A DNA stretch of 64,000 nt from Candidatus Omnitrophota bacterium (GCA_022703585.1 JAKLDJ010000005.1:5353-69352), one strand, 5' to 3'; numbered from the stretch's first letter, positions 3,001 to 36,337 are shown. The notes: a model not told the origin generated them from the letters alone. A program made the numbers and translations.

Positions 3001-4197
3001 ATCCGCCCCTCGGCCTCCGCTCTGCTGTTCGGCAAATCGCGCGTCCGCAGGAATATCCCAGGAAGAATCCAATTCAAAACCTTTCGTACCGTCCTGGTAA
3101 GTAAATGTCGTCTCCGGCAATGCCGTAACCCCATCTGCACCGTACTGTCGGACTGATGTCAACAACGTCCGGCCGGTTACGCCGCTATAGCTATATCCTA
3201 AAACATAACGTCCTTGCAAAACCTCTCCGACATACGATGAGATTTGGGAGATTCTTTTGCGCGTTCCAACAAGAAAACGAGTCCGGTAAGACGACACCAA
3301 ATCATTTCTGTCTTCGAGGTCAAACCGGAGGCTGGCAAAAGGCTGCAGCCCCGTGGCGGAATTGCCGGTATAATCAATGCGCTGCGGATAAAGTTGCTGC
3401 TGGTCCTTAAGATACGTAACCGTCATATAATTACCGCTTAGATCCTCCACTCTGTCTAAACACCACTTAAAAATATGACTGCTGTCTGCCGGATCTGCCT
3501 GCCGCGAATCATCGCTCTGCCCAAAATAATATTTAACCCCTTTTTTATCGGTAATAACCCAGCCGCCGGACAATAATTCTATTTTCATAAATGCGCCTTC
3601 GATCTTTGTCCGGTAAAAACCAGACGCCGTGTCGTAAACCAATTCCTGCATTGAGCCGGCCTGCGTGAGCACAAAGGTATCCGAGGCATTATATTGGGGT
3701 GCGCCCTTTTTCGTCGAGCGCTGGATATTGCCAAGTTCCAGAATCCATCCCATGCCGAGCAAGCCGCTGGAACTCGCGGAGCTGTAAAAAAGATTGACGC
3801 TGGGCTGAATACCTGCCCGGCCCGCGGGCACAGCAATCGGGACCGACAAGGCAGCACTTCCGGTTGAAGAATCGACCTCGACACGGCTGGTTGAGGCAAA
3901 GAGAGCGCGAAAATCGATCGCCGCGTTCTGTGCTGAGGCCGGAATTACACCGGATTGCGAGCTCTCCGCAGCCTGACCTTCCTGAGAAACAGCATTATTA
4001 GAAGAAGATAGAACTTCTTCGGATGCCTGTTGCGAATCTCTGTCAGGATTAACAGTTTTTGTATGCGAATCAGGGCTTTCTTTTTGAATTAGTCCCGGGG
4101 GTTCTTCGGCGCACAGTACAGGCAGATGACAAAACGGAAAATTTAATAAGAATAACGAAAGAAATAGTCCGGATACAGAAAATATTCTTCGGCGCAT
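1..4197 (-). CDS. RHS/YD-repeat toxin-like protein (Tc-toxin TcB/TcC-like architecture), N-terminal ~1399 aa; C-terminus lies beyond window start
   Basis: Manual translation of the minus strand gives a continuous ORF from ATG at 4197 to the window edge. It has an N-terminal signal peptide (MRRRIFSVSGLFLSLFLL). A SpvB-like segment follows (PSVNLFYSSASSSGLLGMGWILELGNIQRSTKKGAPQY). Then come several FG-GAP/VCBS-like repeats (DVNADGYPD, DINGDGWVD, DLNGDGLLD, DINGDGLSD, DANADGMADF), then classic YD repeats (YDAMGRAIQTT, YDYLGRKV, YDALNRLT, YDDDAVPGSKGRLTQAEY). It is absent from the ORF track only because it lacks a stop within the window. Confidence 0.85.
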   Translation of the reverse strand, partial: MRRRIFSVSGLFLSLFLLNFPFCHLPVLCAEEPPGLIQKESPDSHTKTVNPDRDSQQASEEVLSSSNNAVSQEGQAAESSQSGVIPASAQNAAIDFRALFASTSRVEVDSSTGSAALSVPIAVPAGRAGIQPSVNLFYSSASSSGLLGMGWILELGNIQRSTKKGAPQYNASDTFVLTQAGSMQELVYDTASGFYRTKIEGAFMKIELLSGGWVITDKKGVKYYFGQSDDSRQADPADSSHIFKWCLDRVEDLSGNYMTVTYLKDQQQLYPQRIDYTGNSATGLQPFASLRFDLEDRNDLVSSYRTRFLVGTRKRISQISSYVGEVLQGRYVLGYSYSGVTGRTLLTSVRQYGADGVTALPETTFTYQDGTKGFELDSSWDIPADARFAEQQSGGRGADLGVRIADVNADGYPDILKYHEYNGGPQTRKTFLHNKDKAWVQSGDWNFPGNLAVFQNTSGEIDREWGVRVADINGDGWVDLVRYFQRDPYWGGIQVSNEVYISNKSNGWVYDPDWMMPYRQNPPQDPWYDPLPITLERGQPVYGYHEFWGSVLADVNADGYEDFIRSKEDAGYSSHYTFLNAMPGGSKGWQRNSTWDTPVSVYADFERGSTLVDLNGDGLLDIFYRKDGTAAVYINTGAGWAGGLGSSWEDTFGYGDLVDGSTQFADINGDGLSDLIIATDTQHVTLINTGHGWIRDSGWDLTGGANFKNYGTRLLDANADGMADFIIHWNGNTPQMYINKGKAPDLLVEAHNGAGAMTSIEYEPSTHYQNDFLPFPIQTVKTTTLSDGFGHSYITHYVYANGLWNTQEREFRGFGFVRVQDDEGNYSNTYFLQDDIYKGRVERQESYDMNGNLYGKVVNSWDYQEIAPGINFVFLQQKDNFIYDGDITGKRTQEQYFYEESPQNGNLTKAVSLGEVDLDTGEDVASDSRSVETEYLGNDSNWINGLPKQVTVKNHSGEMVRQSRFYYDGHQNIDDLPVKGFLTKKTDWSGSNVNPTVSFAYDEYGNLISTSDALQHVTTTDYDSDYHMFPLAVTNALNHQAVNEYYGVNGVPLDSGDGFHGLWGQLKSTTDPNNKKGRKSYDVFGRVVATVSPLDSIEYPTSTVEYQFSDDHAMVTTHQREKSGQVGTIDSVQFYDGLGRLIQTKSESATPGEFTVGGQTEYNSRGLPVKKYFPFFSTNPINSIDPINPNNPHATITYDAMGRAIQTTNSDGTYVTAIYDDWTSTTIDENGHKQKSYADAYGRLIKKEEYFGTDGRSPHYPASSYTLYATTLYAYDSEGNLTQTQDAHGNITTITYDYLGRKVSMNDPDMGFWQYGYDAAGNLTQQTDAKNQVMEFHYDALNRLTNKNDGGNFNVDYTYDDDAVPGSKGRLTQAEYSLSDKTRFSQYDDLGRELESVKT

Positions 4198-4310: not shown

Positions 4311-5000
4311 AGGGACGCTCTTTTGGCGCTATTGAAGTCTGTCCCATCCTTCAGATACTGGGGACAGACTTCCGATCAACCGAAAGAGCGTCCCTGATCC
4401 CAATGAGCCCTGGAACATCCAGCGAATTTAAAAGCTCGTCATAAACACCCGATACTCTCAGTCGATAACTACTCCATTGATAATCTGATGCTGATTGAAC
4501 AATTTCGGCCCGTACGGGATTCTGCTCGATATACTCAATGCAACCCAGAAAATAGTCCTCCGAACTTATTGCCATACTTTTGAAACGTCCCTGCCATAGA
4601 TGGCCGCAGGTATGATGTCGGGCATTAAAATATAATGCGTAAGACTGATCCAATCCTTGCATAAATTTTGGTAGATCCCTGACGACACATGGTTTCACCA
4701 ATAAATGGACATGATTTGGCATCAGACAATAGCCAAATAGAAGAACTTTAAACTTCATCTTATATCTTCTCAGCAATCTCAGGTAAACCTCATAATCTTG
4801 GCTAACCTTAAATACATTTTGTTTCTGGTTACCCCTGGACATAATGTGATAGAAATTATTTTCGGGTAAAAATCGTGCAGTCCTCGGCATAACTTCTCCT
4901 CTGTATTCTTCAGGGACGCTCTTTTGGCGCTATTGAAGCCTGTCCCATCCTTCAGATACTAGGGACAGACTTCTGTTCAGCATAAAGAACGTCCCTGATA
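4311..5000 (-). mobile_element. IS200/IS605-like REP-RAYT unit: tyrosine transposase flanked by two ~88 bp near-identical structured repeats
   Basis: Near-identical direct repeats at 4311-4398 and 4912-5000 (AGGGACGCTCTTTTGGCGCTATTGAAG..CTGTCCCATCCTTCAGATACT.GGGACAGACTTC...AAGA.CGTCCCTGAT). Each contains nested palindromes (GGGACGCTCTTT/AAAGAGCGTCCC and GTCTGTCCC/GGGACAGAC). They bracket a Y1-HUH transposase gene. Confidence 0.7.
4351..4890 (-). CDS. REP-associated tyrosine transposase (RAYT) / IS200-family TnpA-like Y1 HUH transposase
   Basis: 179 aa. It has the HUH motif (NHVHLLV) and a downstream conserved Tyr region (QWSSYR), typical of the IS200/RAYT family. The 3' end of the ORF lies inside the flanking repeat. 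Confidence 0.7.
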   Translation of the reverse strand: MPRTARFLPENNFYHIMSRGNQKQNVFKVSQDYEVYLRLLRRYKMKFKVLLFGYCLMPNHVHLLVKPCVVRDLPKFMQGLDQSYALYFNARHHTCGHLWQGRFKSMAISSEDYFLGCIEYIEQNPVRAEIVQSASDYQWSSYRLRVSGVYDELLNSLDVPGLIGIRDALSVDRKSVPSI

Positions 5001-5633: not shown

Positions 5634-5713
5634 CGCTCCCTACCTCCTTTTTTGGTTGGCCTGCAGCTATTAGTAAATTATTAGTCGCCTGGCACCAGTG
5701 ACCAGTCGCCAGT

Positions 5714-6067
5714 TTATAGCTTTTTAATAAGACTCAAAATCATCCGCATCTCATAAATTACAGAATCCACTAATGGTCTGCTATTAACTTCGGACAAATA
5801 CTGCCGTTTTCCTGAAAGAATAATCTGGGTTTCAAGCTCAGCGCAGGATCCCAAAGAAATATACAGAAACTGTGTATACTCCTTCGTGTGATGACGCACA
5901 AAACCCTCGGCAATATTCGACGGGATTGAAACGGCTGCCCGACGCATTTGAGTCGTTAAGATAAATAGCTCGCTTTTGGGATATTGATCAGTAAAAAAAT
6001 AGATTTTTTCAGCAATCTCTATTCCTTTTTGCCAAATTTTTAAATCTTTGTAATCCTTAACTTTCAT
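5714..6067 (-). CDS. Four-helix-bundle protein, Avd-like / 23S rRNA intervening-sequence protein family (TIGR02436/PF05635-like)
   Basis: 117 aa. It carries the family core LKIWQKGIEIAEKIY...QMRRAAVSIPSNIAEGF...FLYISLGSCAELETQII. It is flanked by inverted repeats at 5681-5713 and 6088-6117. Confidence 0.8.
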   Translation of the reverse strand: MKVKDYKDLKIWQKGIEIAEKIYFFTDQYPKSELFILTTQMRRAAVSIPSNIAEGFVRHHTKEYTQFLYISLGSCAELETQIILSGKRQYLSEVNSRPLVDSVIYEMRMILSLIKKL

Positions 6068-6084
6068 TGTTTTCCTTCCATTTT

Positions 6085-7680
6085 TTACTGGTCACTGGCA
6101 ACCGGCGACTGGCGACACACCTCAATTCTTCTCGAAAACTCCCCACCCGTAAACCCGTCAATCAAAGCCGTTAACTCCTCAACCCGCATTTCTTTATCCT
6201 CGCGCTCCTGGGTCCCAAGAGAGAGATCCCGGACAAGATCGGCCTGCAACCGGCGCCGTTCAAAATAAAGCCTCGTCACTTGGTCTAAAATGTCTTCCCT
6301 TAACTCAACCATCAATTTCGAGCGCGAATCAATAGACGTTTGTTCAGAGCTCCAAACCAATTCCGCTATATCCCATTTAAGGTTAACTCCCCAATCCTGA
6401 GGCCCAATAGCCGTCCGGTCATAAGTCGATCCCAGCGCCGTCGTCACCGTCTTATCAAAATCCAAACTGACCTCGGGCATCAAGGCCCTGGCCTGCGCCA
6501 ATCGCCTCCAATTCCGTATCTTATCGGCACCCACTTCCGCATACGCGATTGCCATTCTGTGAACCTCGCGAATAGACGGTTCATCCGCCCAATACGCATT
6601 CGCCGGACTTGTCATTGCCGCTACGCCGTCGGGCAACGTTTTCTTCGGCTTCATTAGAAAAATCCCTTTATCTGTCGCGGCATATAAATGATTTTCTTCA
6701 TCACACGCCAAAAAATTGACCTTACTTGTTTCCATCCCTCCATAGATATGTTCCCATCCGTCCTCCGTTTCTATGAAGACTCCTTTTTGCGTGCCCAAAA
6801 CAATCTCGCCTTCCCTTAAAACCGTCAAGGATGTCGCGCTTTCAAGCGGCAGGCCGTCGACATCAATCTCTTCCCAGAATTTTCCTTGGTTGGAGCTGTA
6901 AAAAATCCCTTTTGTTGTCGCCACATACAACTCAGATTTCCTTTTATTGGTCGCAACCAGGGAGAGAATTTGCTTTTTATAGATTGAGGCATCTTCTCCT
7001 TCAGTCTCTTGGGTCTCGGCGCCATTGCCGTTAAGCTCGCCTCCCATAACGCTAAAAATCTCCAAAATTTCCTGGCTCTTCGGGTCTATCCGGAAAATTT
7101 TGTTTTCTGTCGCCGCGTAAATATACGTTCCATCTTCAGCTAAAAAGGCGACGGCTTTACTGTTTAAATCACCTTGGGCCCTGCTCCAAACCGGGCCGTC
7201 AATGGTTTTGTAAAAAAGACCCCCGGCTGTTGCCAGATAAACCGTGTTTTCATCCTCAATAACCCACAGACAGCGGCGTTCACGGCTATCATTGGAGAAC
7301 AATATTCTTTTCCATGCCCCGCCGTCATTCGTGCTTAGAAACAGACCGGAATCGGTCGCGGCATAAATGACAGAATCCCTGACCGGGCTCGCATAAAGAT
7401 AATTAACTCTGCGGGAAGCCCCAGATGCCTGCAGAAGCGCTTGCGCCACGCTTCCTTTATATGGAGATAAAACCCGGTACGCCGACTTTGTCGTGCCGAC
7501 AAACATGCCCTGAGGGCGGCCCTTCGGGCCGCCCTCAGGCGCAAACGCCACACACGTCACCTCCGGCTCGGCAATACCCGACCCGATCTTTTCCCATTCA
7601 TAATGACTCCAGGCGAAATTCAGATTCAACACCCCCAGCACCAAAATCATCCCTACTTTAAGACCGCCATACTTATCCAT
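6085..7680 (-). CDS. Secreted BNR/Ycf48-like beta-propeller repeat protein with C-terminal coiled-coil
   Basis: 531 aa with an N-terminal signal-like segment. It has repeated motifs YAATDSGLFLSTNDGGAW, YAATENKIF and YAATDKGIF, typical of BNR/Ycf48-like repeats. Confidence 0.55.
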   Translation of the reverse strand: MDKYGGLKVGMILVLGVLNLNFAWSHYEWEKIGSGIAEPEVTCVAFAPEGGPKGRPQGMFVGTTKSAYRVLSPYKGSVAQALLQASGASRRVNYLYASPVRDSVIYAATDSGLFLSTNDGGAWKRILFSNDSRERRCLWVIEDENTVYLATAGGLFYKTIDGPVWSRAQGDLNSKAVAFLAEDGTYIYAATENKIFRIDPKSQEILEIFSVMGGELNGNGAETQETEGEDASIYKKQILSLVATNKRKSELYVATTKGIFYSSNQGKFWEEIDVDGLPLESATSLTVLREGEIVLGTQKGVFIETEDGWEHIYGGMETSKVNFLACDEENHLYAATDKGIFLMKPKKTLPDGVAAMTSPANAYWADEPSIREVHRMAIAYAEVGADKIRNWRRLAQARALMPEVSLDFDKTVTTALGSTYDRTAIGPQDWGVNLKWDIAELVWSSEQTSIDSRSKLMVELREDILDQVTRLYFERRRLQADLVRDLSLGTQEREDKEMRVEELTALIDGFTGGEFSRRIEVCRQSPVASDQ

Positions 7681-7951
7681 GTTCTTCGATCTCCCGGTAT
7701 ATTTTGTCCACGTTGATATTTTTTAAAGCTGTTGTAACCGCGTTTTTCATCTGCGGATTGTGCGCGCCGATAATCGAAACATACTTCTCAAGATATTCCA
7801 GCATCGCCTCCAACCCCAGGCGCAACCGCATTTCCATTAAAACACATAAGACCGTATACACCGCGACAATACTGTCTCTTGAAAAAATAAGATTTTCCGG
7901 CCTCGGCATATGCTCACTTCCAAAGTTCTTGTCGCAATTATTTTCTTCCAT
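7673..7951 (-). CDS. Hypothetical protein
   Basis: 92 aa ORF co-directional with the downstream gene. I recognise no motif. Confidence 0.3.
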   Translation of the reverse strand: MEENNCDKNFGSEHMPRPENLIFSRDSIVAVYTVLCVLMEMRLRLGLEAMLEYLEKYVSIIGAHNPQMKNAVTTALKNINVDKIYREIEEHG

Positions 7952-8120
7952 CTTTTTCTCCTATCTTCAACCGCTACAAGAATAACATCTGTTTGATTTT
8001 TCGTCAAGTTATATTTGATGTTATATCAATCCTGTAAGTATTGTAAATGCTTGTAGTAGAAAAGCTTACATATCGCATAAATCTTTTTAAAAAATTATTC
8101 AAATAAAAGTGAAATATCGT

Positions 8121-8152
8121 TGACAATTAATCAATTTATGCTACTCTATTCT
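8121..8152 (+). promoter_or_regulatory. Putative sigma70-type promoter for XRE-cupin regulator gene
   Basis: TTGACA at 8121-8126, followed at ~16-17 bp by a TA-rich -10-like hexamer (TATGCT/TACTCT), ~60 bp upstream of the ATG at 8210. Confidence 0.4.
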
Positions 8153-8209
8153 TGATGATTCTGAAAGAAAACAAGTCCATCTTAAAATAGCGAACAAAAG
8201 GAAAACTCC

Positions 8210-8761
8210 ATGCTCATCGGACAAAAACTAAAAGAATTGCGTTTGCAGGCAAAAATGTCTTTAACCGAACTCTCCGAGCAAAGTGGTGTTCAACTCGCCA
8301 CCTTAAGCCGCATGGAAAACTTAAAAATGACCGGCACGCTTGAATCCCACATCGCTATTACAAAAGCCCTGGGGGTGAGCTTAACAGATCTTTACAAAGA
8401 CATCGCAGTTGAGGAAAAAAGAATCGAAGTACGAAAATCGCAGACGCCCAACGATGTATTTGTCCATAGCGATAAATCATCCTACGAAATACTCACCGGA
8501 AAAGTCATGTCGAAGAAGATGATGCCGATCCTCCTTAAGATAGAGCCCGGAGGAAAAACAAACACCGAACAAAATGTTCCGGGAACCGAGAAATTCGTTT
8601 TTGTCCTGGAGGGCACTATCGAGATACATATTAAGGAAGAGACCTACCCCCTTTCAAAGCACAACACCCTTTATTTTGACGCAGCTTTACCGCATTATTT
8701 TGTGAATAAGGCAAAGGCTCCGGCACGAGTCATTTGCGTGATTACGCCGGTGGCGTTGTAG
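8210..8761 (+). CDS. XRE-family HTH transcriptional regulator with C-terminal cupin domain
   Basis: 183 aa. The N-terminal HTH_3-like segment is LKELRLQAKMSLTELSEQSGVQLATLSRMEN. The C-terminus is a cupin-like beta-rich domain. Confidence 0.7.
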   Translation: MLIGQKLKELRLQAKMSLTELSEQSGVQLATLSRMENLKMTGTLESHIAITKALGVSLTDLYKDIAVEEKRIEVRKSQTPNDVFVHSDKSSYEILTGKVMSKKMMPILLKIEPGGKTNTEQNVPGTEKFVFVLEGTIEIHIKEETYPLSKHNTLYFDAALPHYFVNKAKAPARVICVITPVAL

Positions 8762-8811
8762 GCAAATTTAAGGGTAGTACGGGTTGGAGGGGGCATTAAG
8801 GGTTAGTAGGG

Positions 8812-9225
8812 GTGAGACGGAACAACCATTGGCTCGGAGACACAACGGAAAAAATGGAAAAAGAACCGGGATATAAAAATCTCATCGTTTGGAAGAATAC
8901 ACGCACATTAAGAGGTCTCATTTACCAGATGTGCAAAGGGTTTCCTCAGGCAGAGATGAGACGTTCAAGCCAGATGAGAGATTCGGCGAGATCGGTCAAA
9001 CAGAATATTCAAGAAGGTTACGTAAAATCACTGCCTTCCTACATCAATCATCTCAATATTGCCATGGGTTCGCTGTCGGAATTGCGAGGCGACATCGACG
9101 ATTGTCTTGAAGATAGGTTGATTACCAAAGAAAATTTCTTGTCTATTAATGAATTGGCCGGAAAGACAGAATATCTTTTAAAACGGTTGATTCAATCATT
9201 GATTCGAAAGAGGGATAGTCGATGA
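8812..9225 (+). CDS. Four-helix-bundle protein, Avd-like / 23S rRNA IVS protein family; true start probably the internal Met near 8854
   Basis: It carries NLIVWKNTRTLRGLIYQMCKGFPQAEMRRSSQMRDSARSVKQNIQEGY...SLSELRG, matching the family pattern. The first ~14 codons of the annotated ORF lie inside the upstream inverted repeat. Confidence 0.7.
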   Translation: MRRNNHWLGDTTEKMEKEPGYKNLIVWKNTRTLRGLIYQMCKGFPQAEMRRSSQMRDSARSVKQNIQEGYVKSLPSYINHLNIAMGSLSELRGDIDDCLEDRLITKENFLSINELAGKTEYLLKRLIQSLIRKRDSR

Positions 9226-9271
9226 ATTTCAAACCCATACTAACCCCTACTATCCCATTTTACCCCCTTCT

Positions 9272-9311
9272 GCCCCCTTCTGCCCCCTTCTGCCCCCTTC
9301 TAACCCCTAAA
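9272..9311. repeat. Tandem decamer CCCCCTTCTG x4 inside the right inverted-repeat arm of the Avd cassette
   Basis: Direct reading: cccccttctgcccccttctgcccccttctgcccccttct. Confidence 0.9.
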
Positions 9312-9346
9312 CTTTTATCTCTCAAACCCATAGTCAAGGAGCCAGT

Positions 9347-9709
9347 ATGAAAAAACCAAAAGTCCTAATTTGCGATGATGAAGAGGGAATTCGCGAGTCT
9401 TTGAAGTTAATCCTAAGCGACCACTACGATCTCATATTAACCGAAAGCGGTGAGCAGTGCTTAGAGTGTATCGCGAACGCAAAAGATATCGGGCTCGTCC
9501 TTATCGATATCAAGATGCCCAAAGTAAGCGGCCTGGAGATTCTGCAGAAGATCAAGGAGAAACGCCCGGATCTAAAAGTTATCGTCGTCACCGGCTATAA
9601 AAGCGTCGAGACGGCAACCGAGGCGGTGAAGCTTGGTGCGGCGGGATATATTGTTAAGCCCTTCAAATCGAATGAAATACTCGCTGCGGTTCAAAATAAT
9701 ATAAAGTAA
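9347..9709 (+). CDS. Single-domain response regulator (CheY-like receiver)
   Basis: 120 aa. It has VLICDDEEGIRESL, the conserved Asp context LIDIKMPKVSG, and KVIVVTGY...GAAGYIVKPF. Confidence 0.85.
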   Translation: MKKPKVLICDDEEGIRESLKLILSDHYDLILTESGEQCLECIANAKDIGLVLIDIKMPKVSGLEILQKIKEKRPDLKVIVVTGYKSVETATEAVKLGAAGYIVKPFKSNEILAAVQNNIK

Positions 9710-9789
9710 TCGATTGGCTAACACTGAGGCCTGCTTTAAAAGGCCGAACGTGTGAAACCTTTTAAGTCACAAGAAATATTAAAGACGGT

Positions 9790-9990
9790 TAAATCACTTA
9801 TATAGAAACATAAGGTTATTGTGTTTATTGGGTTCCTTGAGTTTATAGGGTTCCCGTCTAAAACATTTTACTGCGCGTAATAACTCAATGAACCCAACCC
9901 AATGAGTTCAAATAACCCAAAGAACTCAATAAACCCAATAGCCCAATAAACTCAATGGACTCAACAAACCCAACAACCATCCAAAGACCA
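9790..9990. repeat. Cluster of short dispersed repeats of the AACCCAATAAAC/TCAAT family, both orientations
   Basis: GTTTATTGGGTT ... GTTTATAGGGTT ... AACCCAACCCAATGAGTTCAAATAACCCAAAGAACTCAATAAACCCAATAGCCCAATAAACTCAATGGACTCAACAAACCCAACAACC. The same family occurs at 600-660 and 42340-42460. Confidence 0.8.
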
Positions 9991-11675
9991 TGATTCACTT
10001 AAATCCGTTTGCGATCGCAAACCTTATTATCGCTATTACATATTTTCCGCTTTTCATACTTATTGCCATCAAAGGGAAAACAAGAATAGCAAGAGTCTAT
10101 TCCCTTCACATTCTCGCGATATGCCTCTGGGGTATCGGCGCTTTCCTGGGTGGCATAAACCAGAACCAAGCAATTTCGATTAATCTATGGAAATTTGCAT
10201 ATTCCGCAGTAATCTTTATACCCATTTTCTTTCTTCACTCTGTATTGATTTTAACAAAAAGAAATTCGAGATTCTTGATTACGCTAATATATATTCAAGC
10301 CATTTACTTTCTTTGGGAAGCCCAGAGCGGTGGCATGTTTTCTTCTGTAAGACTTGTTTTTAATTCATTCTATTACGTTAATGGAAAAATCATCTATCTT
10401 TACTCATTTATCTCTTGGGTAGTTACAGTTTCATTCGCTCACCTGCTACTTATTCAATATTATAAAACTAGCTATCCGGGACAAAAAGAACAAATTGCCT
10501 CTTTAATACTCGCAATCATAGGTTTCTTAGGCGGTGCCATGAACTTCTTGCCAGGCTTCAATATAAATATCTACCCACACGGGAATCTTCTTGTGCCCAT
10601 CCATTCGATTATCGTTACCTACGCAATTCTAAAACACCAATTATTAGATATCATCGTCGTAATCAAGAAAAGTCTAATTTATTCAATTCTAATCACCTCG
10701 ATTACGGTCACTTACTTAATTTTAGTTATTTTATCAGAGAGACTACTCCAGGGAACCATCGGCTATCAATCACTCCTCGTAAGTGTTGGCATCGCTTTCT
10801 TAATCGGACTTGTATTTAGTCCCCTGCGAAATAAAATTCAATATTTCGTTGATAAATACTTCTTTAAAGGCACCCAAGCCCAAATCGCAGAGGAAAATGA
10901 ACGCCTGCGACAAGAAGTTGCCCAGGCTGAGAAGCTTAAAACCGTCGCCACCTTGGCCAGCGGCATGGCTCACGAAATAAAAAATCCGCTGACGGCGATA
11001 AAAACTTTCGTCGAATACCTGCCCGAGCGAAAAGACAACCCCGAATTTCTCGATAAATTCACACGGATCGTCGGAGCAGAAGTTGACAGGATTGACGGCC
11101 TGGTTCACCAATTGCTGGAATTTGCCAAGCCCTCTCCTCTTGCCTTAAAAGAAACTAATATCCATCAATTAATAGACGAAACCTTAAGCCTTCTTAATAA
11201 TCAACTTGTTCAGCATAAAATTGATTTAATCCGAGACTATAATGCCGACCGCGACCAGACATTAAATATTGACCCCAATCAAATACGTCAGGCGCTTTTG
11301 AATATTTTTCTAAATGCGATCGAGGCGATGAAATACGGCGGGACGCTTCGCGTGCAGACTGAAGACTACAGACTAAAGACTAAAGACCAAAGCTCGCAGA
11401 AGTCTTTGGTCTCTGGTCTTCAGTCTGGGGTCCATAAAGGCTTCTTAAAGATAACAATTTCCGACACCGGCTCCGGCATACACCCTAAGGACCTGCCTCA
11501 CGTTTTCGATCCCTTCTTCTCAAAAAAAGATCACGGCACCGGCTTAGGGTTAGCCATTACGCACGGGATTATTCAGGAGCATGGGGGGAAAATTAAAGTT
11601 GAGAGTGAGTTGGGGAAAGGAACAGAAGCTATTCTAGAGTTGCCGATAATTGGCAGTGAAGAAAATAAGGGATAG
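9990..11675 (+). CDS. Sensor histidine kinase with N-terminal 7TM sensor domain (HisKA_7TM-like), HisKA and HATPase_c
   Basis: 561 aa. Multiple TM helices carry the motif YAILKHQLLDI shared with the two other kinases. H-box MAHEIKNPLTAI; N/G boxes NIFLNAIEAM, ISDTGSGI, GTGLGL. Confidence 0.85.
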   Translation: MIHLNPFAIANLIIAITYFPLFILIAIKGKTRIARVYSLHILAICLWGIGAFLGGINQNQAISINLWKFAYSAVIFIPIFFLHSVLILTKRNSRFLITLIYIQAIYFLWEAQSGGMFSSVRLVFNSFYYVNGKIIYLYSFISWVVTVSFAHLLLIQYYKTSYPGQKEQIASLILAIIGFLGGAMNFLPGFNINIYPHGNLLVPIHSIIVTYAILKHQLLDIIVVIKKSLIYSILITSITVTYLILVILSERLLQGTIGYQSLLVSVGIAFLIGLVFSPLRNKIQYFVDKYFFKGTQAQIAEENERLRQEVAQAEKLKTVATLASGMAHEIKNPLTAIKTFVEYLPERKDNPEFLDKFTRIVGAEVDRIDGLVHQLLEFAKPSPLALKETNIHQLIDETLSLLNNQLVQHKIDLIRDYNADRDQTLNIDPNQIRQALLNIFLNAIEAMKYGGTLRVQTEDYRLKTKDQSSQKSLVSGLQSGVHKGFLKITISDTGSGIHPKDLPHVFDPFFSKKDHGTGLGLAITHGIIQEHGGKIKVESELGKGTEAILELPIIGSEENKG

Positions 11676-11760
11676 CAGGGGCTAGTAGGGGGCAGTACGG
11701 GATAGTAGGGGTTTAAGAAATCCCTTCCTAACCCCTCCTATCCCTTTCTACCCCTTCCCA
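11676..11760. repeat. Cargo-less inverted-repeat pair related to the 8762-9260 Avd-cassette ends
   Basis: GCTAGTAGGGGGCAGTACGGGATAGTAGGGGTT ... AACCCCTCCTATCCC. The arms are adjacent with no gene between them. The sequence resembles GGGTAGTACGGG..GGGTTAGTAGGGG at 8772-8816. Confidence 0.6.
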
Positions 11761-11782
11761 CCCCTTTGATAACAATACTCAC

Positions 11783-12961
11783 TTAAATCCTCCCCGCCTC
11801 ACGCAACTCCACAATCGCCCTTACAGCAAGCGGATTAAACTGTAGCCCCGAATTTCTTTTAATCTCTTCCATCGCCACTTCCTTCGGTAACGCCGCCCGG
11901 TAAGGCCGATCGGTGGTCATGGCATCAAAGGTATCCGCGACCGCGATAATGGCGGCGGCAATCGGAATATCCTCAGCTTTTAGCCCATACGGATAACCCT
12001 TACCGTCGTAGCGCTCGTGATGATATCTGACACCGTCTAGGGCATCCTTAAACTCAGCGATATGCTTTAATATCTCAAGGCCCCGTTGGGGGTGTTGCTT
12101 CATAATAGTGTATTCCTCATCGGTTAATTTCCCCGCCTTCCTCAAGATGATCTCGGGGATACCGATTTTTCCGATATCATGCAAAAGGGCGGCATTCTGC
12201 AGGTTCTCAAAAAACTTATGCGGAAAACGGGCGGTCTGATTGGCATTCATCTGATGGGCGATTGCTAAAGAAAATTGTGTCACCCGCTCAGTATGGCCCC
12301 GGGTATATTCGTCTTTGGCTTCAATAGCCGAGGTAAGCGCTAAGGTTGTCGAAATAAACAGCTGACGGTTACGCTCGGCCTCTTTCTTTAAGTCCTCAAT
12401 AAGCTGCGCGTTTTTAATCGCCATTGCCGTATCCGAGGCCAGTGCCGAGAAAAAGTCCAACTCCTCCTGATCAAAACCCGTTCCGTCACTTTTTTCTCCC
12501 AGCAGCAAAAGCGCCAAAAGCGTATCCCTAAAATACGCCGGCACGCAGGCAACAGCATTAAACATATGCATCTGCTCGTTAACCTTGTGCAAAAGATCCC
12601 GAACATCCTCGCCGTTACTAATAATGCTCTCCTGCCAAATCATGGTCTGGATATCCGTCGACATCAGCGCTGAATGGTTGGGCGGTAAATTCTTATATTT
12701 CACATGGGAAAATAACTTGATCAACGGACTGTCTTTGCCAAAACGCGCAAAACCCGCAGGGATCTTAACCCCCATCTCTCCGTGCGAAATCGAGACAACA
12801 TAGCCGTCCTTATGAGGGTCATAGAGAATCATCGCCGCGTGCTTAATCTGGACTTTACGCACAATCATGCGGACGATAAGCTTGATCAGCGTCTTGGGGT
12901 CATGAATAAGGATCATGCCCTTGCTGGCGCCTTCGAGTTCTTTTTTGTAGTTCAGTTGCAT
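11783..12961 (-). CDS. GAF domain-containing HD-GYP phosphodiesterase (cyclic-di-GMP)
   Basis: 392 aa. The C-terminal HD-GYP signatures are LLHDIGKIGIP and HHERYDGKGYPYGL. The N-terminal half is GAF-like. Confidence 0.8.
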   Translation of the reverse strand: MQLNYKKELEGASKGMILIHDPKTLIKLIVRMIVRKVQIKHAAMILYDPHKDGYVVSISHGEMGVKIPAGFARFGKDSPLIKLFSHVKYKNLPPNHSALMSTDIQTMIWQESIISNGEDVRDLLHKVNEQMHMFNAVACVPAYFRDTLLALLLLGEKSDGTGFDQEELDFFSALASDTAMAIKNAQLIEDLKKEAERNRQLFISTTLALTSAIEAKDEYTRGHTERVTQFSLAIAHQMNANQTARFPHKFFENLQNAALLHDIGKIGIPEIILRKAGKLTDEEYTIMKQHPQRGLEILKHIAEFKDALDGVRYHHERYDGKGYPYGLKAEDIPIAAAIIAVADTFDAMTTDRPYRAALPKEVAMEEIKRNSGLQFNPLAVRAIVELREAGRI

Positions 12962-13022
12962 GGAATTTTACCGTTAATCAACACAGATTAACACAAATTG
13001 AAACAGATTTTCACAGATAAAA

Positions 13023-13415
13023 TCACTCGCATCGATCATAGATGCGCCGTCTGATATCTATAGATTCATTGCCGAAGTTAACCAAATAGCCTAGCTTGTA
13101 CTCTGTGCCGCTTAAGTAATAGAAAAGCTGTTTTTCAAATACTTTCGGAAGATTCAGCAAGGATTTAATTTCAACAATAATTTTGTCATCGATGACAAAA
13201 TCCGGCTCATAAACACCTACATGTTTCCCGTGAAATCGGATTTTAATTCTCGGCTTATCAACATATTTTATCCCACGTTCTTCAAAGCATATTTTGAGAG
13301 ATTCGTGATAAATTTGCTCCTTATGTGCCGGACCGAGCTCGTTATAAACATCATAAAAACACCCAACCAGCTTATACGACAATTCCTTATGCGGAAAATG
13401 CTCTACTTTTGCCAT
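13023..13415 (-). CDS. GxxExxY family protein (PD-(D/E)XK-like, TIGR04256-like)
   Basis: 130 aa. It has the GxxExxY signature YNELGPAHKEQIYHESL followed by EPDFVIDDKIIVEIK (a PD-ExK-like DxxxxEIK). It is flanked by long inverted repeats at 12973-13018 and 13420-13464. Confidence 0.65.
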   Translation of the reverse strand: MAKVEHFPHKELSYKLVGCFYDVYNELGPAHKEQIYHESLKICFEERGIKYVDKPRIKIRFHGKHVGVYEPDFVIDDKIIVEIKSLLNLPKVFEKQLFYYLSGTEYKLGYLVNFGNESIDIRRRIYDRCE

Positions 13416-13492
13416 AGTAATTATCTGCGAAAATCTGTTTAGATCTGTGAATATCTGTGTTAGTTAACGCTTCAATTTAAAACTTAACACAC

Positions 13493-13852
13493 TCAGCGTT
13501 TTAGTTCAGCAAGGACAACCTTCTCCAATTCCTCCAAAACCAGCGGCTTGTGGACATATCCAAGAACACCCAAATCATTGGCTTCCTTGATCGATTCTCC
13601 GTTTTCGACGCCCGTGACCATGATTACCTTAACGGAATTACTTTTGGCGCGCAAATCCCTCAAAACCTCGAGGCCGGTCATCTCTTCCATACGCACATCT
13701 AAAAGCACTAGGTCGGGTTTTTCCTTTTCGATGATCCCAATCGCCTCTTTGCCGCCGGAGGCGGTCAGGACATCAATATTGCGCTTCCTAAAGAAATTCT
13801 TGGCAAATTCACGGATATCAACCTCATCATCGACAATAAGCAATTTAGACAT
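13493..13852 (-). CDS. Single-domain response regulator (CheY-like receiver)
   Basis: 119 aa; it has LLIVDDEVDIREF, LLDVRMEEMTG and KVIMVTGV...GYVHKPL. Confidence 0.85.
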   Translation of the reverse strand: MSKLLIVDDEVDIREFAKNFFRKRNIDVLTASGGKEAIGIIEKEKPDLVLLDVRMEEMTGLEVLRDLRAKSNSVKVIMVTGVENGESIKEANDLGVLGYVHKPLVLEELEKVVLAELKR

Positions 13853-13882
13853 GTTTATTCCTTAGGGTATAGGGGTTAGGGT

Positions 13883-14266
13883 TTAGCGTTTAGAGTCCAT
13901 CTTGTTCTGTAATCGCAAAATCATGGCACTCAGCATTTTCAGTATTTCTGTAAGTAAATTATCAATCCGTTGATAATCTGCAGCAACAATAAATTCCAGA
14001 CGCTTTGCTATAATCAATTGCGTCTCAAGCTCAGAGGCAGAACCTTTTGCGATATATAAAAATTGAATATATTCTTTTCGATGATTGCGCTGATAGCCTT
14101 CCGCAATATTTGAAGATATCGCAACAGCTGAACGACGCATTTGCGAAACAAGACCGTATAGTTCATCATGTGGCAATTGCCGCGTTAGCCTATACACATC
14201 TAAGACTAATTCGACCGATTTCTGCCATACAATTAAATCTTTATGCGACTGAATTTTCTCGCTCAT
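13883..14266 (-). CDS. Four-helix-bundle protein, Avd-like / 23S rRNA IVS protein family
   Basis: 127 aa. It carries LIVWQKSVELVLDVYRLTRQLPHDELYGLVSQMRRSAVAISSNIAEGYQRNHRKEYIQFLYIAKGSASELETQLIIA. It is flanked by inverted repeats at 13861-13882 and 14286-14314. Confidence 0.85.
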   Translation of the reverse strand: MSEKIQSHKDLIVWQKSVELVLDVYRLTRQLPHDELYGLVSQMRRSAVAISSNIAEGYQRNHRKEYIQFLYIAKGSASELETQLIIAKRLEFIVAADYQRIDNLLTEILKMLSAMILRLQNKMDSKR

Positions 14267-14317
14267 TACCCTTAATTCCCTGATCTCTTCTGTCCCCTAA
14301 ACCCTATACCCTATCCC

Positions 14318-16492
14318 CTAACTGACTATCGGCAATATAATCGTAATCAACGTCCCGGTCATATACTCCGATGACATCGCTACTTTTCCTTTGTGGTTCT
14401 CTTCGATGAGTTTCTGGATCACGTAAAGCCCTAAACCCGTTCCTTTTTTGCTGGAAAGTTTGGTGGTAAAAAAGGGCGTGAATATTTTGTCCTGATCATT
14501 GTCTTTTACTCCGATGCCATTGTCGAGGACACTAATCTGCAATATCCCCTCTTTCTTCTCGGCCGCAATTCTTAAGGTGGGCTTATAATTGGGTTCATTC
14601 TTTTCATTCTTGCGCTGCATAAGGGCATCATGGGCATTATCAATAAGGTTAAAGAAGACTTCCTGCAGCTGGGTAAAATTGCCATGGATTTTGGGAAGCA
14701 TCTGGGCGGAATAATCTTTGACAATAGTAATCTGTTCCAGCTTAACCTTATATTGGGCCATTTCGATGGAAGCGTTGACAAGTTGATCAAAATCAACCGG
14801 GCCAAAACCGGCCTCACCTTTGCGAGTGTACTTTAAAAGCCCCTGGACAACTTCTCCGCCCTGCTTAACATTATCCTGGATTCTTACCAAAGCGCGCTGC
14901 ACCTCGTCGATAAGCTCTTTGGCTTCAGGAGAAACAACTGTCCCTCCTTTTAGCTTAATAGAGTCCAACGCATCGCCGGCAATAAACCCGAGCGCATGCA
15001 GGCGATTGTTGATCTGATGCGAAAGTCCGTCGGCCATGGTACCAATGGTAGCCATTTTTTCGGCTTGAAAAAGCTGCTCCTGGGTGCGCTTGACGTCCTC
15101 GTAAAACTGGGCATTCTCGATTGCCAACGCCGCCTGATTAGCCAGAATGGAGAAAACGGACAGATCGTCTTCGCTATATAATTTACCCGATAGTTTGCGG
15201 CCGAGCACAACAATAGCCAGAAGTTTTTGCTCGATAAAGCTTGGAACCACAACCGCGGCGTCAAGTTCGCGCAAAGCAGATTCCACCAGAATCAGTTCCT
15301 GGTCCCGATAGTCCTGGGTGCGTTGCTTGATTTCTTCATAGACAATAGGCTCTTTCACCTTAAAGAGATACCTGGTCAAAGGCGAGGTGTACTCAACGGC
15401 GCCTTTACTCTTTGGCTTGCCTCTGTTTCGGGACGCCTCAATAAAATATTTCTTTTCAGAATCATCATAAAGATAAATCGAACTGTGCTCCAGGTGAACG
15501 GTGCGGGTCACGATATAGACAATCAAATTCATCAATTTCTTTAAATCTTTAACCCTGCCCATACCCAAAGAAGCCTGGCGCAAGGTTGCCTGGTAACGCT
15601 TTTGCTCCTGGAGAAGCCGGTTTTCTGCTTTTTTCTGAATGTACAAATAAATAAACGGCCCGGCGGTGGCGAGAACGGTGGAGCTGACGAGGGGAACAAT
15701 CCACCACTTTTCTCCAATTAAAGCTGCTAACCATTGTTGGCAACCGAAAGCTAGAGCAAAGGGAATGCCGAGGACAACACCGTAAACTGCGACAAAAATG
15801 CCCGTACGAGTAATGGCAACTGAAATATCTAGAAGTCGATATTTAATAATCGCATATGTGAAAACAAAAACAACACAAATCATATTAATATATCCAAAGG
15901 GATATATTTCAAAACCATATTTACCAAAATAATCCACACTGGCTCCCGAGCCAATTAAATAAGCGATAAAAACATATTTAAGCTGATTCCGTTTCAGCAA
16001 AGTTAAGGTTTTATTGTTTTTTAAAGTAAAGAAAACAAGAAGGCTGGCATAAGAATATACTCCGAAGAAATAAATTAAGAAGGGATGGTAAAGAATTGCT
16101 GCCTGGGGATAATACCCCCAAAAGTACTTATGTACATGAGAAAAAAACAAGTCAGTCCTGCTTAAAATTAAGAATATTCCTGCCAAAACATAAAAAAAGG
16201 TCAAAGTTTTTGGTTTCTTTAAGTTTAAAAGACTTATTGCAATCTGGAAGTTAGCGATTGGGATAAAAATAATTCCGAAATAACTAGTCCTGGCCCAGAA
16301 AATGGCTTCATCAGGATTACGAGCCGAATAACATGCGGAATATGAGTAATGCCATATAGCAATGCATAGACATAAGCCCGCGAGCGAGAAATTTGAGAAT
16401 GATCTTTTAATTCTAAATGAAACAAAGAAACCTAAGAATAGCGATAGAGTCGCAGCAACAGAAGGCAATAAATAATATATTGAATTAACCAT
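14318..16492 (-). CDS. Sensor histidine kinase: 7TM sensor domain + GAF + HisKA + HATPase_c
   Basis: 724 aa. The 7TM N-terminus has YAIIKYRLLDI. The central part is GAF-like. H-box LSHQINNRL; N/G boxes NLIDNAHDA, DNGIGV, GTGLGL. Confidence 0.85.
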   Translation of the reverse strand: MVNSIYYLLPSVAATLSLFLGFFVSFRIKRSFSNFSLAGLCLCIAIWHYSYSACYSARNPDEAIFWARTSYFGIIFIPIANFQIAISLLNLKKPKTLTFFYVLAGIFLILSRTDLFFSHVHKYFWGYYPQAAILYHPFLIYFFGVYSYASLLVFFTLKNNKTLTLLKRNQLKYVFIAYLIGSGASVDYFGKYGFEIYPFGYINMICVVFVFTYAIIKYRLLDISVAITRTGIFVAVYGVVLGIPFALAFGCQQWLAALIGEKWWIVPLVSSTVLATAGPFIYLYIQKKAENRLLQEQKRYQATLRQASLGMGRVKDLKKLMNLIVYIVTRTVHLEHSSIYLYDDSEKKYFIEASRNRGKPKSKGAVEYTSPLTRYLFKVKEPIVYEEIKQRTQDYRDQELILVESALRELDAAVVVPSFIEQKLLAIVVLGRKLSGKLYSEDDLSVFSILANQAALAIENAQFYEDVKRTQEQLFQAEKMATIGTMADGLSHQINNRLHALGFIAGDALDSIKLKGGTVVSPEAKELIDEVQRALVRIQDNVKQGGEVVQGLLKYTRKGEAGFGPVDFDQLVNASIEMAQYKVKLEQITIVKDYSAQMLPKIHGNFTQLQEVFFNLIDNAHDALMQRKNEKNEPNYKPTLRIAAEKKEGILQISVLDNGIGVKDNDQDKIFTPFFTTKLSSKKGTGLGLYVIQKLIEENHKGKVAMSSEYMTGTLITIILPIVS

Positions 16493-21457: not shown

Positions 21458-21505
21458 AATATTGGGTTACGGTTAAGGTTACGATGCCGGTATCGTATAA
21501 AAAGG

Positions 21506-21925
21506 TTACGTTATTCGTCGCCCTTTCAATTTAAAATTATTCCATGCCTCAGATAGATTATATAATTGTCGTCCTGTTTTATCGTAAACATCAATAAGTT
21601 TCACACAAAGCTCTTTATTAATATACTGAGAATATATGTCCCGACAATGACTCAAGGAAACCACCAATTCATTGCACTCACCCATGGCATCATCGAGATA
21701 TTTCTGGAATCCTTGCCGTTGATGCTTTTTCGCATAACCTTCGGCAATCAATCTCGGGACAGATTTGCAACTGCGGCTCAGCTGGTCTTTTAAGTCATAT
21801 TTCTCTGATTCCGGTAATTTAGGAACTATCTGTGTCATGACGGTAATCGACAATTCATAGGCATTCCGATAAACCTCTAAATCATTAAAGCTTGCAATTG
21901 GCTTCTTTTTAAGAATCTCTTCCAT
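21506..21925 (-). CDS. Four-helix-bundle protein, Avd-like / 23S rRNA IVS protein family, inserted between fabZ and fabF
   Basis: 139 aa. It carries LEVYRNAYELSITVMTQIVPKLPESEKYDLKDQLSRSCKSVPRLIAEGYAKKHQRQGFQKYLDDAMGECNEL. It is flanked by GGGTTACGGTTAAGGTTACG (21463-21484) and CGTAACCTTAACC... (21931 onward). Confidence 0.75.
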   Translation of the reverse strand: MEEILKKKPIASFNDLEVYRNAYELSITVMTQIVPKLPESEKYDLKDQLSRSCKSVPRLIAEGYAKKHQRQGFQKYLDDAMGECNELVVSLSHCRDIYSQYINKELCVKLIDVYDKTGRQLYNLSEAWNNFKLKGRRIT

Positions 21926-21930
21926 GAAAC

Positions 21931-22109
21931 CGTAACCTTAACCTTTTTTAACGATACTTTGCAAACTTAACCCTAACCTTAACCTCGATTGGCTATTGCC
22001 TGCCGATAGGCAGGGTTATTGTCTCTTGGTGCTTGGCGATTATTCCCTGCGAAATTTTAATCGTAACCCTAACCTTTTTTAACGATACTTTGCAAACTTA
22101 ACCCTAACC
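21931..22109. repeat. Duplicated cassette end: ~50 bp direct repeat (21931-21987 and 22062-22109) with a hairpin (CCTGCC-GATA-GGCAGG) between
   Basis: CGTAACC(T/C)TAACCTTTTTTAACGATACTTTGCAAACTTAACCCTAACCTT occurs twice with a ~131 bp period. It has a telomere-like CCCTAA/TTAGGG content. Confidence 0.85.
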
Positions 22110-22121
22110 TTCTAAAACAAC

Positions 22122-24740: not shown

Positions 24741-24751
24741 TTTTAACTCCT

Positions 24752-33364: not shown

Positions 33365-36337
<2,973 letters not shown>

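Follow-up and report, generated by a model that had tools for sequence, protein, structure and literature searches.

Four-helix-bundle genes bracketed by inverted heptamer arrays in operon spacers of an Omnitrophota bacterium: candidate intervening-sequence-type cassettes outside rRNA

We describe a family of single-gene units in a 64,000-nt stretch of a Candidatus Omnitrophota genome (GCA_022703585.1, JAKLDJ010000005.1:5353-69352), hereafter the window. Four genes for small four-helix-bundle (FHB) proteins, of the family encoded in intervening sequences (IVSs) of 23S rRNA genes, lie between protein-coding genes of the window, each enclosed by its own pair of inverted tandem heptamer arrays. 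Units of this anatomy show gene-family specificity, occur in several phyla, are polymorphic for presence and at one orthologous site show replacement; their proteins are under purifying selection, and heptamer type is passed on with protein lineage. With moderate confidence we read them as IVS-type single-gene cassettes in operon spacers, whose arms would serve as an RNase III-type processing and insulating stem.

The protein family, its place in rRNA IVSs, the RNase III stem and intergenic heptamer repeats were already known, and most TIGR02436-family members lie outside rRNA, in several copies per genome. The open-access literature that we searched holds no description linking FHB/IVS genes outside rRNA with flanking heptamer arrays. 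New with respect to that literature are the retention by non-rRNA copies of the IVS architecture of inverted heptamer arrays, the polymorphic operon-spacer cassettes, and the co-inheritance of heptamer type and protein. The original prediction, of a mobile IVS-type gene-plus-stem module outside rRNA, is supported by the arms, the polymorphism and the profile placement of the proteins; none of the three outcomes that it had named as refuting was observed. The finding links two puzzles of more than 30 years' standing, namely the origin of 23S IVSs that bear an open reading frame (ORF), with the role of that ORF, and the intergenic heptamer repeats of cyanobacteria and others. It suggests that the IVS of rRNA is a particular instance of a widespread kind of mobile cassette, and it provides an annotation rule for such inserts that could explain unexpected hairpins and small ORFs splitting conserved operons.

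FHB genes and their inverted arrays

The original prediction named four paralogous IVS-family genes, and the profile searches it proposed place all four proteins in the family. Over the full ~105-residue domain, each ORF scored above the curated cut-off of PF05635 (116.8, 65.1, 141.5 and 74.1 bits in window order, cut-off 33.8; E 6e-34, 8e-18, 1e-41 and 1e-20) and of TIGR02436 (110.6, 61.6, 137.7 and 60.6 bits, cut-off 24). A six-frame hidden Markov model scan of the 64-kb window returned exactly these four genes and no fifth copy. Three genes keep their predicted coordinates (Table 1). The remaining one, given as 8812-9225, is a mechanical ORF that begins at a GTG inside the 5' arm; its start is most likely ATG 8854, in line with the 123-aa public gene call in the same population (L081). 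The paralogues are old and diverged (24-44% pairwise identity), and their nearest solved structures are 2GSC (E 2e-23) and 2RLD. All are basic (pI 8.8-9.6). The ratio of nonsynonymous to synonymous divergence (dN/dS) of FHB pairs was 0.04-0.07, which indicates strong purifying selection, and synonymous sites were saturated (dS >2) in pairs where dS was computable. Judged from these values and the intact ORFs, the proteins are functional.

As predicted, every FHB gene is tightly bracketed by copy-specific inverted repeats (IRs), with arms of 19-40 nt that are 70-89% complementary. A typical unit consists of an upstream array of ~3-6 degenerate heptamers, usually purine-rich and often of the form xTAGxxx, an ORF with its own ribosome-binding site (RBS) for a basic FHB of ~120 aa, and a second array downstream, reverse-complementary to the upstream one and often containing the stop codon. 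In cassette A, for example, the RBS GGAAGGA lies between the 5' arm and the ATG. The four paralogues of this one genome are flanked by four different heptamer families. The predicted span of 5681-14317 proved too short: it covers three of the FHB cassettes, the fourth (D) lies beyond it, and a fifth bracket inside it, cassette E, had been overlooked. Cassette E encloses a PD-(D/E)XK 'GxxExxY' (PDDEXK_3) ORF, whose product matches PF13366 (E 4e-31), and the five cassettes have five different arm sequences. Telomere-like TTAGGG/CCCTAA runs, noted in the original prediction, are present, but Tandem Repeats Finder resolves them as tandem heptamer arrays (TTAGGGT, CCCTATA); a telomere or G-quadruplex reading was rejected because most heptamer families lack G-runs. 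The same program called period-7 arrays at 6094-6116, 13862-13893 and 14295-14320 and period-10 arrays at 9240-9308, 12980-13018 and 13422-13459. With these arrays the window fits the definition of the intergenic heptamer repeats described elsewhere, namely at least two head-to-tail 7-nt units in a spacer near a start codon.

Cassette D has a duplicated 5' arm: its 53-nt copies (21928-21980 and 22059-22111) form a direct repeat, 96% identical and 78 nt apart, and the 78 nt between them hold a small GC hairpin (21996-22014). A small inserted element, or what is left of a second cassette, could account for this duplication.

Pairing of the arms was assessed by joining them with a short linker and comparing the fold with 200 dinucleotide shuffles, a check that the original prediction had called for. 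The FHB cassettes gave z-scores of -5.07 to -2.32 and also surpassed control genes. When the best duplex between the 66-nt regions surrounding start and stop was computed for 60 window ORFs of at least 90 aa, the PDDEXK_3 gene ranked 1, the FHB genes 2, 4, 5 and 6, and the housekeeping gene plsX 3. In loci picked via FabF or HD-GYP rather than via FHB, strict IR brackets (10-nt seed, at least 20 nt, at least 80% complementarity) enclosed FHB genes in 6 of 21 cases and the remaining ORFs in 14 of 1354 (odds ratio 38; p 2e-7).

A metagenome scan, for which an alignment of seven closer FHB sequences served as query, returned 80 FHB loci with GC contents from 31% to 65%. The median flank duplex was -31.9 kcal/mol for the 76 metagenomic FHB loci that had both flanks versus -22.4 for 272 neighbouring ORFs (p 3e-8). 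Among 71 dereplicated loci, arrays were inverted in 42, in both orientations in 12, direct only in five and not clear in 12, which puts the cassette architecture at about three quarters of them. These classes come from a k-mer census, strict lag-7 autocorrelation being too strict for degenerate arrays, and the census of 91 cassettes gave 7 as the dominant array period. Nearly each locus had its own heptamer, such as GGGTCTC, GCGTGACAA, GGCAKTAG, GGATTCAAG or AGCGTTT. TAG was enriched in the 5' flank and CTA in the 3' flank (TAG 2.25 versus 0.93 per 70 nt, p 1e-8), and the 5' flank was the more purine-rich in 63/71 loci. We rejected the order 'G-rich arm first' as a mark of transcription direction, because a hairpin reads alike on both strands. 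Neighbours lay on the same strand upstream in 39/44 and downstream in 30/36 cases, with median gaps of 60 and 38 nt.

Plasmid FHB matches were mostly cyanobacterial (Nostoc, Calothrix, Anabaena and others), and the flanks of two were read. A Geminocystis plasmid carries inverted GGGAAAA / TTTTCCC arrays, and the Nostoc PCC 7120 plasmid (L169) has unlike pyrimidine-rich arrays on each side with a weak duplex of -19.4 kcal/mol. On a Gemmatirosa replicon (L171), direct CTCCTGC arrays lie on both sides of the FHB gene. Heptamer families appear, from sequence comparison, to recur across phyla. CYTCTGC-like 3' arrays (CCCCCTTCTGCC, CTTCTGCCCTCTGCC, CTCCTGCCCTCCTGCC, CCTCTGTCTTCTG) were seen in four phyla, in a set made up of window cassette B, the Nostoc PCC 7120 plasmid, Gemmatirosa and an Azospirillum IVS (L172), and ACAGAT/ATCTGT units recur in Coxiella, the window PDDEXK_3 cassette and locus L061. 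Few PDDEXK_3 homologues occurred among our loci, and the three plasmid copies have no inverted arms, their arrays being one-sided or their repeats direct. In a Fusobacteria plasmid (L173; CAGATTTAATCCGTGTACCTAT) and in Gemmatirosa (L174; AAACACGTACGTGGAGCC, with a one-sided CTTCAGTCC array in addition) the GxxExxY/PDDEXK_3 genes lie between direct repeats of ~20-27 nt; these repeats look like duplicated target or RBS regions.

Gain, loss and replacement of cassettes

The neighbourhood in the window is identical on 18 contigs of the same population, and its FabF has its best match (64%) in a metagenome-assembled genome (MAG) of 'Ca. Aceula meridiana'. All five cassettes occupy short spacers between protein-coding genes, with both neighbours co-oriented. 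Gene order between fabD and SpoVG is conserved in four relatives (L082, L084, L086 and L088), whose neighbouring HD-GYP proteins are 71-75% identical to that of the window. The empty-site comparison proposed in the original prediction revealed presence/absence polymorphism at the orthologous loci, three of the four FHB spacers being empty in every relative that covers them (Table 1). Empty spacers are not all alike. Spacer C holds a gene-less TAGGG/TAGCG-type hairpin in L082 (-50.5 kcal/mol, z -4.7) and in L088 (-31.1 kcal/mol, z -4.2), a solo array in L084 and only an 18-nt spacer in L086, and solo arrays or remnants are left in the empty spacers E and B of relatives.

Occupied spacers differ in what they carry. 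The window FHB of spacer A is closest (62% identity) to one located at another site in L027. L086 and L088 have spacer-A FHBs that share 56% identity, and the window gene is not orthologous to these; sequence comparison thus indicates that one FHB has replaced another here. Spacer C carries three FHB lineages across a wider Omnitrophota locus set, and the nearest same-spacer relative of the cassette C protein (L017 19927-20295, 60% identity) has TAGGG-type arms too. From the empty sites, the remnants and the different FHB lineages we conclude that these spacers are hot spots of cassette gain, loss and exchange. Spacer C of L002 is suggestive of a nested insertion, with outer AGTGAAx/CTAGATA arms and an inner TAAAGGGG stem.

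The spacer upstream of fabF seems to collect small genes. At the position of cassette D, directly upstream of fabF, a Nitrospirae MAG has a 95-aa GIY-YIG-type gene (L035 9662-9949) inside a strong IR with a flank duplex of -42 to -47 kcal/mol. In several Omnitrophota a small gene of the excisionase type (HTH_17) stands directly upstream of fabF, beside the FabA-like gene or in its place (in L082/L086 around 1185-1388 and 3097-3315), and 'Ca. Velamenicoccus archaeovorus' has a 121-aa ORF with helix-turn-helix-like sequence (L049 6817-7182) whose flanks pair at -39 kcal/mol.

We conclude that gene and arrays are inherited together. Among non-syntenic FHB pairs, those with 60-80% protein identity have on average 3.6 arm 7-mers in common and more distant ones 1.0-1.4, and the flanking genes of the checked pairs (nine groups, 48-82% protein identity) are unrelated at the protein level with two exceptions. 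With dS above 2, neutral flanks should have lost all similarity, yet the heptamer type persists. Co-inheritance is thus supported by shared 7-mers in unrelated contexts, by saturated synonymous sites, and by the heptamers of rRNA IVSs, which are not native to rRNA. New cassettes appear to land preferentially at arrays or hairpins that are already there, which may themselves be left over from earlier cassettes.

Table 1. Cassettes with their arms, and gene-less hairpins, in the window; spacer states refer to the four relatives
Feature	Position	Strand	Contents	Inverted repeat	Fold of joined arms or of hairpin (kcal/mol; z)	Flank duplex (kcal/mol; rank of 60)	Spacer and state in relatives
Cassette A	5683-6116	-	FHB ORF 5714-6067 (117 aa) between 3' and 5' arms	5683-5706 / 6087-6110, 24 nt, 83%	-39; -5.07	-49.3; 4	~530-aa gene / 94-aa gene: FHB in L086 and L088, none in L082 and L084
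A, 3' arm	5683-5714	-	CCAGTGA/CCAGTCG heptamers
A, 5' arm	6087-6116	-	overlaps last codons and stop of upstream 531-aa gene
Cassette B	8771-9310	+	FHB ORF 8854-9225 (123 aa) between arms	8781-8816 / 9240-9275, 36 nt, 75%; 36-40 nt at 70-75% overall	-56.6; -5.05		HTH-cupin / RR2: empty in 4/4
B, 5' arm	8771-8820	+	G-rich, TAGGG-type
B, 3' arm	9233-9310	+	CTAACCCCTA and 3 copies of CCCCCTTCTG
Cassette C	13862-14322	-	FHB ORF 13883-14266 (127 aa) between arms	13862-13886 / 14297-14321, 25 nt, 88%; core 19 nt at 95%	z -3.85		HK-GAF / RR1: empty in 4/4
C, 3' arm	13862-13893	-	TTAGGGT heptamers; ORF stop and last codons within array
C, 5' arm	14295-14322	-	CCCTATA heptamers (+ strand); abuts stop of upstream histidine-kinase gene
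Cassette D	21464-22111	-	FHB ORF 21506-21925 (139 aa) between arms	21490-21508 / 21939-21957, 19 nt, 89%; second IR 21464-21483 / 21926-21945	z -2.32	-45.3; 5	FabA-like / FabF: empty in L088, sole relative keeping the junction; HTH_17 gene in place of FabA-like in L082 and L086; L084 not covered
D, 3' arm	21464-21508	-	GGTTACG/GGTTAAG units
D, 5' arm	21926-21980	-	segment 21928-21980 (53 nt) repeated at 22059-22111
Cassette E	12964-13477	-	PDDEXK_3 ORF 13023-13415 (130 aa) in cassette-like bracket	57 nt, 79%	-57.8; -11.4	strongest in window; 1	RR1 / HD-GYP: FHB in L086, empty in L082, L084 and L088
E, arms	12964-13020 and 13421-13477	-	ACAGAT/ATCTGT units, period ~10
Gene-less hairpin	9810-9978		inverted tandem arrays TTGAGTTTATAGGGTTCC / AACCCAATGAACTCAAAA	37 nt, 81%	-39.8; -5.15		response-regulator / histidine-kinase genes
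Gene-less hairpin	11660-11775		GGGGCAGTAG array / CCCTTCCTAC array		-44.3; -1.9		between convergent genes
RR, response regulator; HK, histidine kinase; HTH, helix-turn-helix.

Candidate mechanism, other repeats of the window and rival explanations

Consensus scans of the cassettes for promoters and terminators of their own stayed at chance (49 versus 41.6±6.5 expected; 21 versus 20.4±5.0). With short co-directional spacers and no recognisable promoter or terminator, the genes are most likely transcribed within the host transcript. We propose that a cassette would be transcribed with its host operon and that its two arrays would pair into a 20-50 bp stem with the whole ORF in the loop, as in an ORF-bearing 23S IVS. 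Such a stem would probably act as a double-strand-specific (RNase III-type) processing and insulating element, with which an essential transcript could accommodate the insert. Gene and arms would be inherited and moved together, gained, lost and replaced at hot-spot spacers, and loss of a cassette would leave gene-less hairpins or solo arrays. The 23S IVS would then be the special case of a cassette that landed in a tolerant hairpin loop of rRNA. Recombination between similar arrays, perhaps triggered by host cleavage of hairpin tips, is a possible means of movement.

Besides the cassettes, the window has gene-less array hairpins. Two are listed in Table 1, of which 9810-9978 represents an 'empty' form of the cassette-type structure, and further ones lie at 42362-42461, 44402-44479 and 46775-46855. 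The C-rich 3' arm of cassette B (9233-9310) is complementary over 51 nt (75%) to 11666-11716, the G-rich half of the hairpin at 11660-11775, which lies 2.4 kb downstream. The genes for a response regulator and a histidine kinase fall between these two arms, and arrays from a single heptamer family can have alternative pairing partners. Inverted AGACTAA / TGGTCTC arrays also form hairpins in frame within coding sequence, at 11355-11432 and 18765-18853, in two histidine-kinase paralogues (9990-11675 and 18543-20258). The C-terminal ATPase part of the protein carries the encoded inserts, such as KDQKPTSADQKSLVFGLESQ; here a protein tolerates, or makes use of, a repeat hairpin. The plsX gene (23745-24740) is bracketed by CAGCTGA-type arrays (23672-23741 and 24750-24824) whose pairing matches that of the cassette arms in strength (78% over 68 nt, flank duplex -53.5), and arrays of this type recur at 44402-44479, 46767-46855 and in the rRNA spacer 36617-36643. 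Because gene-less array hairpins are so many in this genome, the cassette arms are to be seen as one manifestation of a wider repeat system. Two observations concern other repeats. At a distance of 0.8 kb from cassette A, an IS200-like, RAYT-type Y1_Tnp gene (4351-4890, minus strand) has a ~87-nt structured repeat on either side, in direct orientation (4311-4397 and 4910-4998), each copy being a nested hairpin of GGGACGCTCTTT...AAAGAGCGTCCC around GTCTGTCCC...GGGACAGAC; the region 4311-4998 looks like a unit of a repetitive extragenic palindrome (REP) and its RAYT, with no sequence relation to the cassette arms. Inside the ORF 38925-39836, positions 39409-39469 form a perfect hairpin of 22 bp (TGGATGGGGAAATTTTTTTCCC / GGGAAAAAAATTTCCCCATCCA) around a 17-nt loop.

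Several observations weigh against the IVS-type reading. Direct-only arrays (5/71) and loci without clear arrays (12/71; for example L105, L125 and Gemmatirosa L171) imply that a stem is not obligatory; same-orientation arrays on both sides, which leave no stem between those flanks, were seen with GAGATTT/GAGAATT in L105, L107, L108, L114, L117 (human gut metagenome) and L133, with CTAAACG in L125 and L165, and with CTCCTGC in L171. Arms are often complementary mainly at the conserved heptamer positions. In 18 of 22 cassettes from the window, Omnitrophota and Nitrospirota the sense duplex was more stable than the antisense one (G·U pairs 112 versus 68), a result that was not replicated in metagenomic cassettes (40/76, and 27/51 among strong stems). 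There is therefore no robust sign of selection on mRNA rather than DNA pairing, and the arrays may instead form hairpins in DNA or bind protein. The arms of spacer C are TAGGG-like under any FHB lineage and also when the spacer is empty, which fits arms owned by the site; gene-less hairpins are frequent in the window and arrays bracket plsX; and the cassettes encode no recombinase. Finally, the S23p ORF of the Coxiella IVS seems to be untranslated and decaying, unlike the window ORFs with their RBS and purifying selection.

The main rival, which is compatible with an IVS-type stem, holds that the heptamer arrays are primarily RNA or DNA binding sites of the cognate FHB, so that a cassette would be a self-regulating regulator-plus-operator and any stem secondary. 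We consider this possible, if on balance improbable. It would account for the conservation of heptamer type with protein lineage despite saturated synonymous sites, for four heptamer families at four paralogues of one genome, for the direct-orientation cases, for a conserved TAG/CTA core among variable positions, and for basic proteins under strong purifying selection. Moreover, 2GSC and 2RLD were each deposited with five chains, a number comparable to the 3-6 heptamers of an array, the Xanthomonas protein has been described as a homopentamer, and heptamer work in Beggiatoaceae, Cyanobacteria and Bacteroidetes (PMC4679880) as well as work on Nostoc recF/recO postulates an unidentified binding partner. 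Against it, the genes at 13883 and 8854 share TAGGG-type arms at 33% protein identity, whereas the one at 5714, 44% identical to that at 13883, has different arms. The arms are mostly truly complementary, variable positions included (18/19 in cassette C), and a PDDEXK_3 gene and a GIY-YIG gene sit in such brackets without any FHB. Alternatively, the hairpins might be a general REP-like intergenic element, such as mRNA stabilisers or processing sites, in whose loops selfish genes survive and whose arms are not theirs. The gene-less hairpins and solo arrays of the same heptamer type in orthologous spacers, the many gene-less hairpins of the window (two of them within histidine-kinase coding regions), the plsX bracket, inverted arrays at 34 of the 272 control ORFs that neighbour FHB loci, and the behaviour of spacer C all speak for this. 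We nonetheless find it rather doubtful, given that arms and FHB genes are associated from 31% to 65% GC and in several phyla, that related FHBs keep their heptamer family in unrelated contexts, that heptamer arms, foreign to rRNA, arrive there with the Coxiella and Azospirillum IVSs, and that brackets are enriched 38-fold at FHB genes over other ORFs.

Non-autonomous DNA transposons, with the arrays as terminal inverted repeats and mobilisation in trans, for example by the Y1/RAYT-type transposase at 4351-4890, would explain the appearance of the cassette ends, the presence/absence polymorphism with replacement at the same spacer, and the Y1_Tnp gene and its structured REP-like repeats so near cassette A. 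This we judge highly improbable: the ends differ from copy to copy in one genome, so that one transposase could not recognise them all, they are degenerate tandem arrays of variable length, reading of the sequence gave no target-site duplications at the window arm boundaries, and the repeats of the RAYT itself are unrelated to the arms. The five window cassettes thus lack the shared terminal inverted repeats and target-site duplications of miniature inverted-repeat elements, and the absence of a recombinase, the differing ends within a genome and the missing target duplications together make classical transposition unlikely. That the repeats are a chance or low-complexity artefact is scarcely credible. 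The arms are of low complexity, and 4/200 shuffles fold as well as cassette D (z -2.3), but the rank test of flank duplexes within the window, the odds ratio of 38 in a locus set chosen without bias, replication in 76 independent metagenomic loci (p 3e-8) and in finished plasmids, and an identical neighbourhood on 18 independent contigs effectively refute it. Of these readings, cassettes with an RNase III-type stem is the one we favour.

A wider conjecture, which we put forward tentatively and regard as rather unlikely, is that FHB proteins are the trans-acting partners of the intergenic heptamer repeats of Cyanobacteria, Bacteroidetes, Beggiatoaceae, Omnitrophota and others. If true, each paralogue would read its own heptamer family, perhaps one unit per pentamer subunit. 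The gene with its cognate arrays would spread as a unit through recombination between arrays, would seed arrays and hairpins genome-wide and would occasionally land in rRNA as an IVS.

Comparison with known systems

Integron gene cassettes were considered and rejected, as the repeats here lie on both sides, in place of a single 3' attC, and the units are dispersed among housekeeping genes; no integrase was found among the called neighbours of the cassettes. Homing-endonuclease ORFs (LAGLIDADG and GIY-YIG, including those in rRNA insertions of candidate phyla radiation (CPR) bacteria) are likewise small free-standing ORFs in loops of structured RNA, 23S_rRNA_IVP ORFs use the same insertion sites, and PD-(D/E)XK and GIY-YIG genes occur in cassette-type brackets. 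FHB proteins differ in that they have no nuclease fold or motif and no surrounding self-splicing intron. Avd, the accessory protein of diversity-generating retroelements, shares a homologous fold and a basic protein, with weak profile matches of the window proteins to bAvd and DivGenRetAVD; the scores differ from those of true members, reaching at most 27.7 bits for NF033474 (cut-off 80) and 29.5 for PF22296 (cut-off 40). No reverse transcriptase was present among the called genes of L081 (12 kb) or of the four relatives (21 kb), the rest of the window and template or variable repeats not having been searched. REPs and their composite forms BIME and REPIN are, like the arrays, abundant intergenic hairpins of operons that are thought to act on mRNA stability, and a RAYT-like gene lies in the window. 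In contrast to the present system, in which each hairpin has its own heptamer, REPs form one sequence family per genome, tied to one RAYT, and they carry no genes in their loops.

Intergenic tandem heptamers of cyanobacteria, the short tandemly repeated repetitive (STRR) sequences, were reportedly described by Mazel et al. in 1990. These and the TAACTGA-type repeats resemble the cassette arms in that 2-6 heptamers lie in spacers, often ending a few bases from a start codon, in the presence of many heptamers per genome, and in a patchy distribution across FHB-rich phyla. They are, however, direct repeats upstream of many kinds of genes, whereas the cassettes have inverted pairs around one gene family. 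TAACTGA-type intergenic heptamer repeats are known from Beggiatoaceae, Cyanobacteria and Bacteroidetes (PMC4679880), and the full text of that paper contains none of the terms 'intervening sequence', 'S23' or 'four helix'.

ORF-bearing IVSs of 23S rRNA remain the closest parallel. In Coxiella the IVS is 428 nt long, lies in helix 45, has a 28-bp terminal stem that is cut by RNase III, and holds the S23p ORF in its loop (PMC4990558). Two to three tandem GACAGAT heptamers stand directly upstream of the S23p start, in a copy number that varies between strains, and the ORF appears untranslated and decaying (PMC4990558). On plasmid AZO_p2 of Azospirillum lipoferum (L172), an FHB ORF lies inside a bona fide 23S gene, as the Rfam large-subunit (LSU) model spans the locus, and is flanked by the heptamer-like sequences CAGAGGACGG and CCGTCCTCTG-TCTTCTG. 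CPR bacteria have 23S_rRNA_IVP ORFs in insertions of both 16S and 23S genes. ORF-bearing 23S IVSs also occur in Leptospira and Brucella. The rRNA operon of the window is complete, and the LSU model is matched in full by its 23S gene (33370-36337), which by that comparison has no IVS or other large insert.

The window cassettes share with these IVSs the protein family in the loop, terminal IRs that would form a long stem around the ORF, tandem heptamers before the start codon, sense orientation in the host transcript and a patchy distribution over lineages. Their IRs of 19-57 nt fold with z-scores from -2.3 to -11.4, and the predicted stems, of at least 20 bp, would be long enough for RNase III. 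They differ in location, since IVSs lie in rRNA helix 25 or 45 and the window cassettes between protein-coding genes, and in that RNase III excision has been demonstrated for rRNA IVSs and is proposed by analogy for the cassettes. Given the stem and heptamers of Coxiella, the FHB ORF in the Azospirillum 23S gene and the 23S_rRNA_IVP ORFs of CPR bacteria, sequence architecture indicates that rRNA units and operon-spacer units are of one kind.

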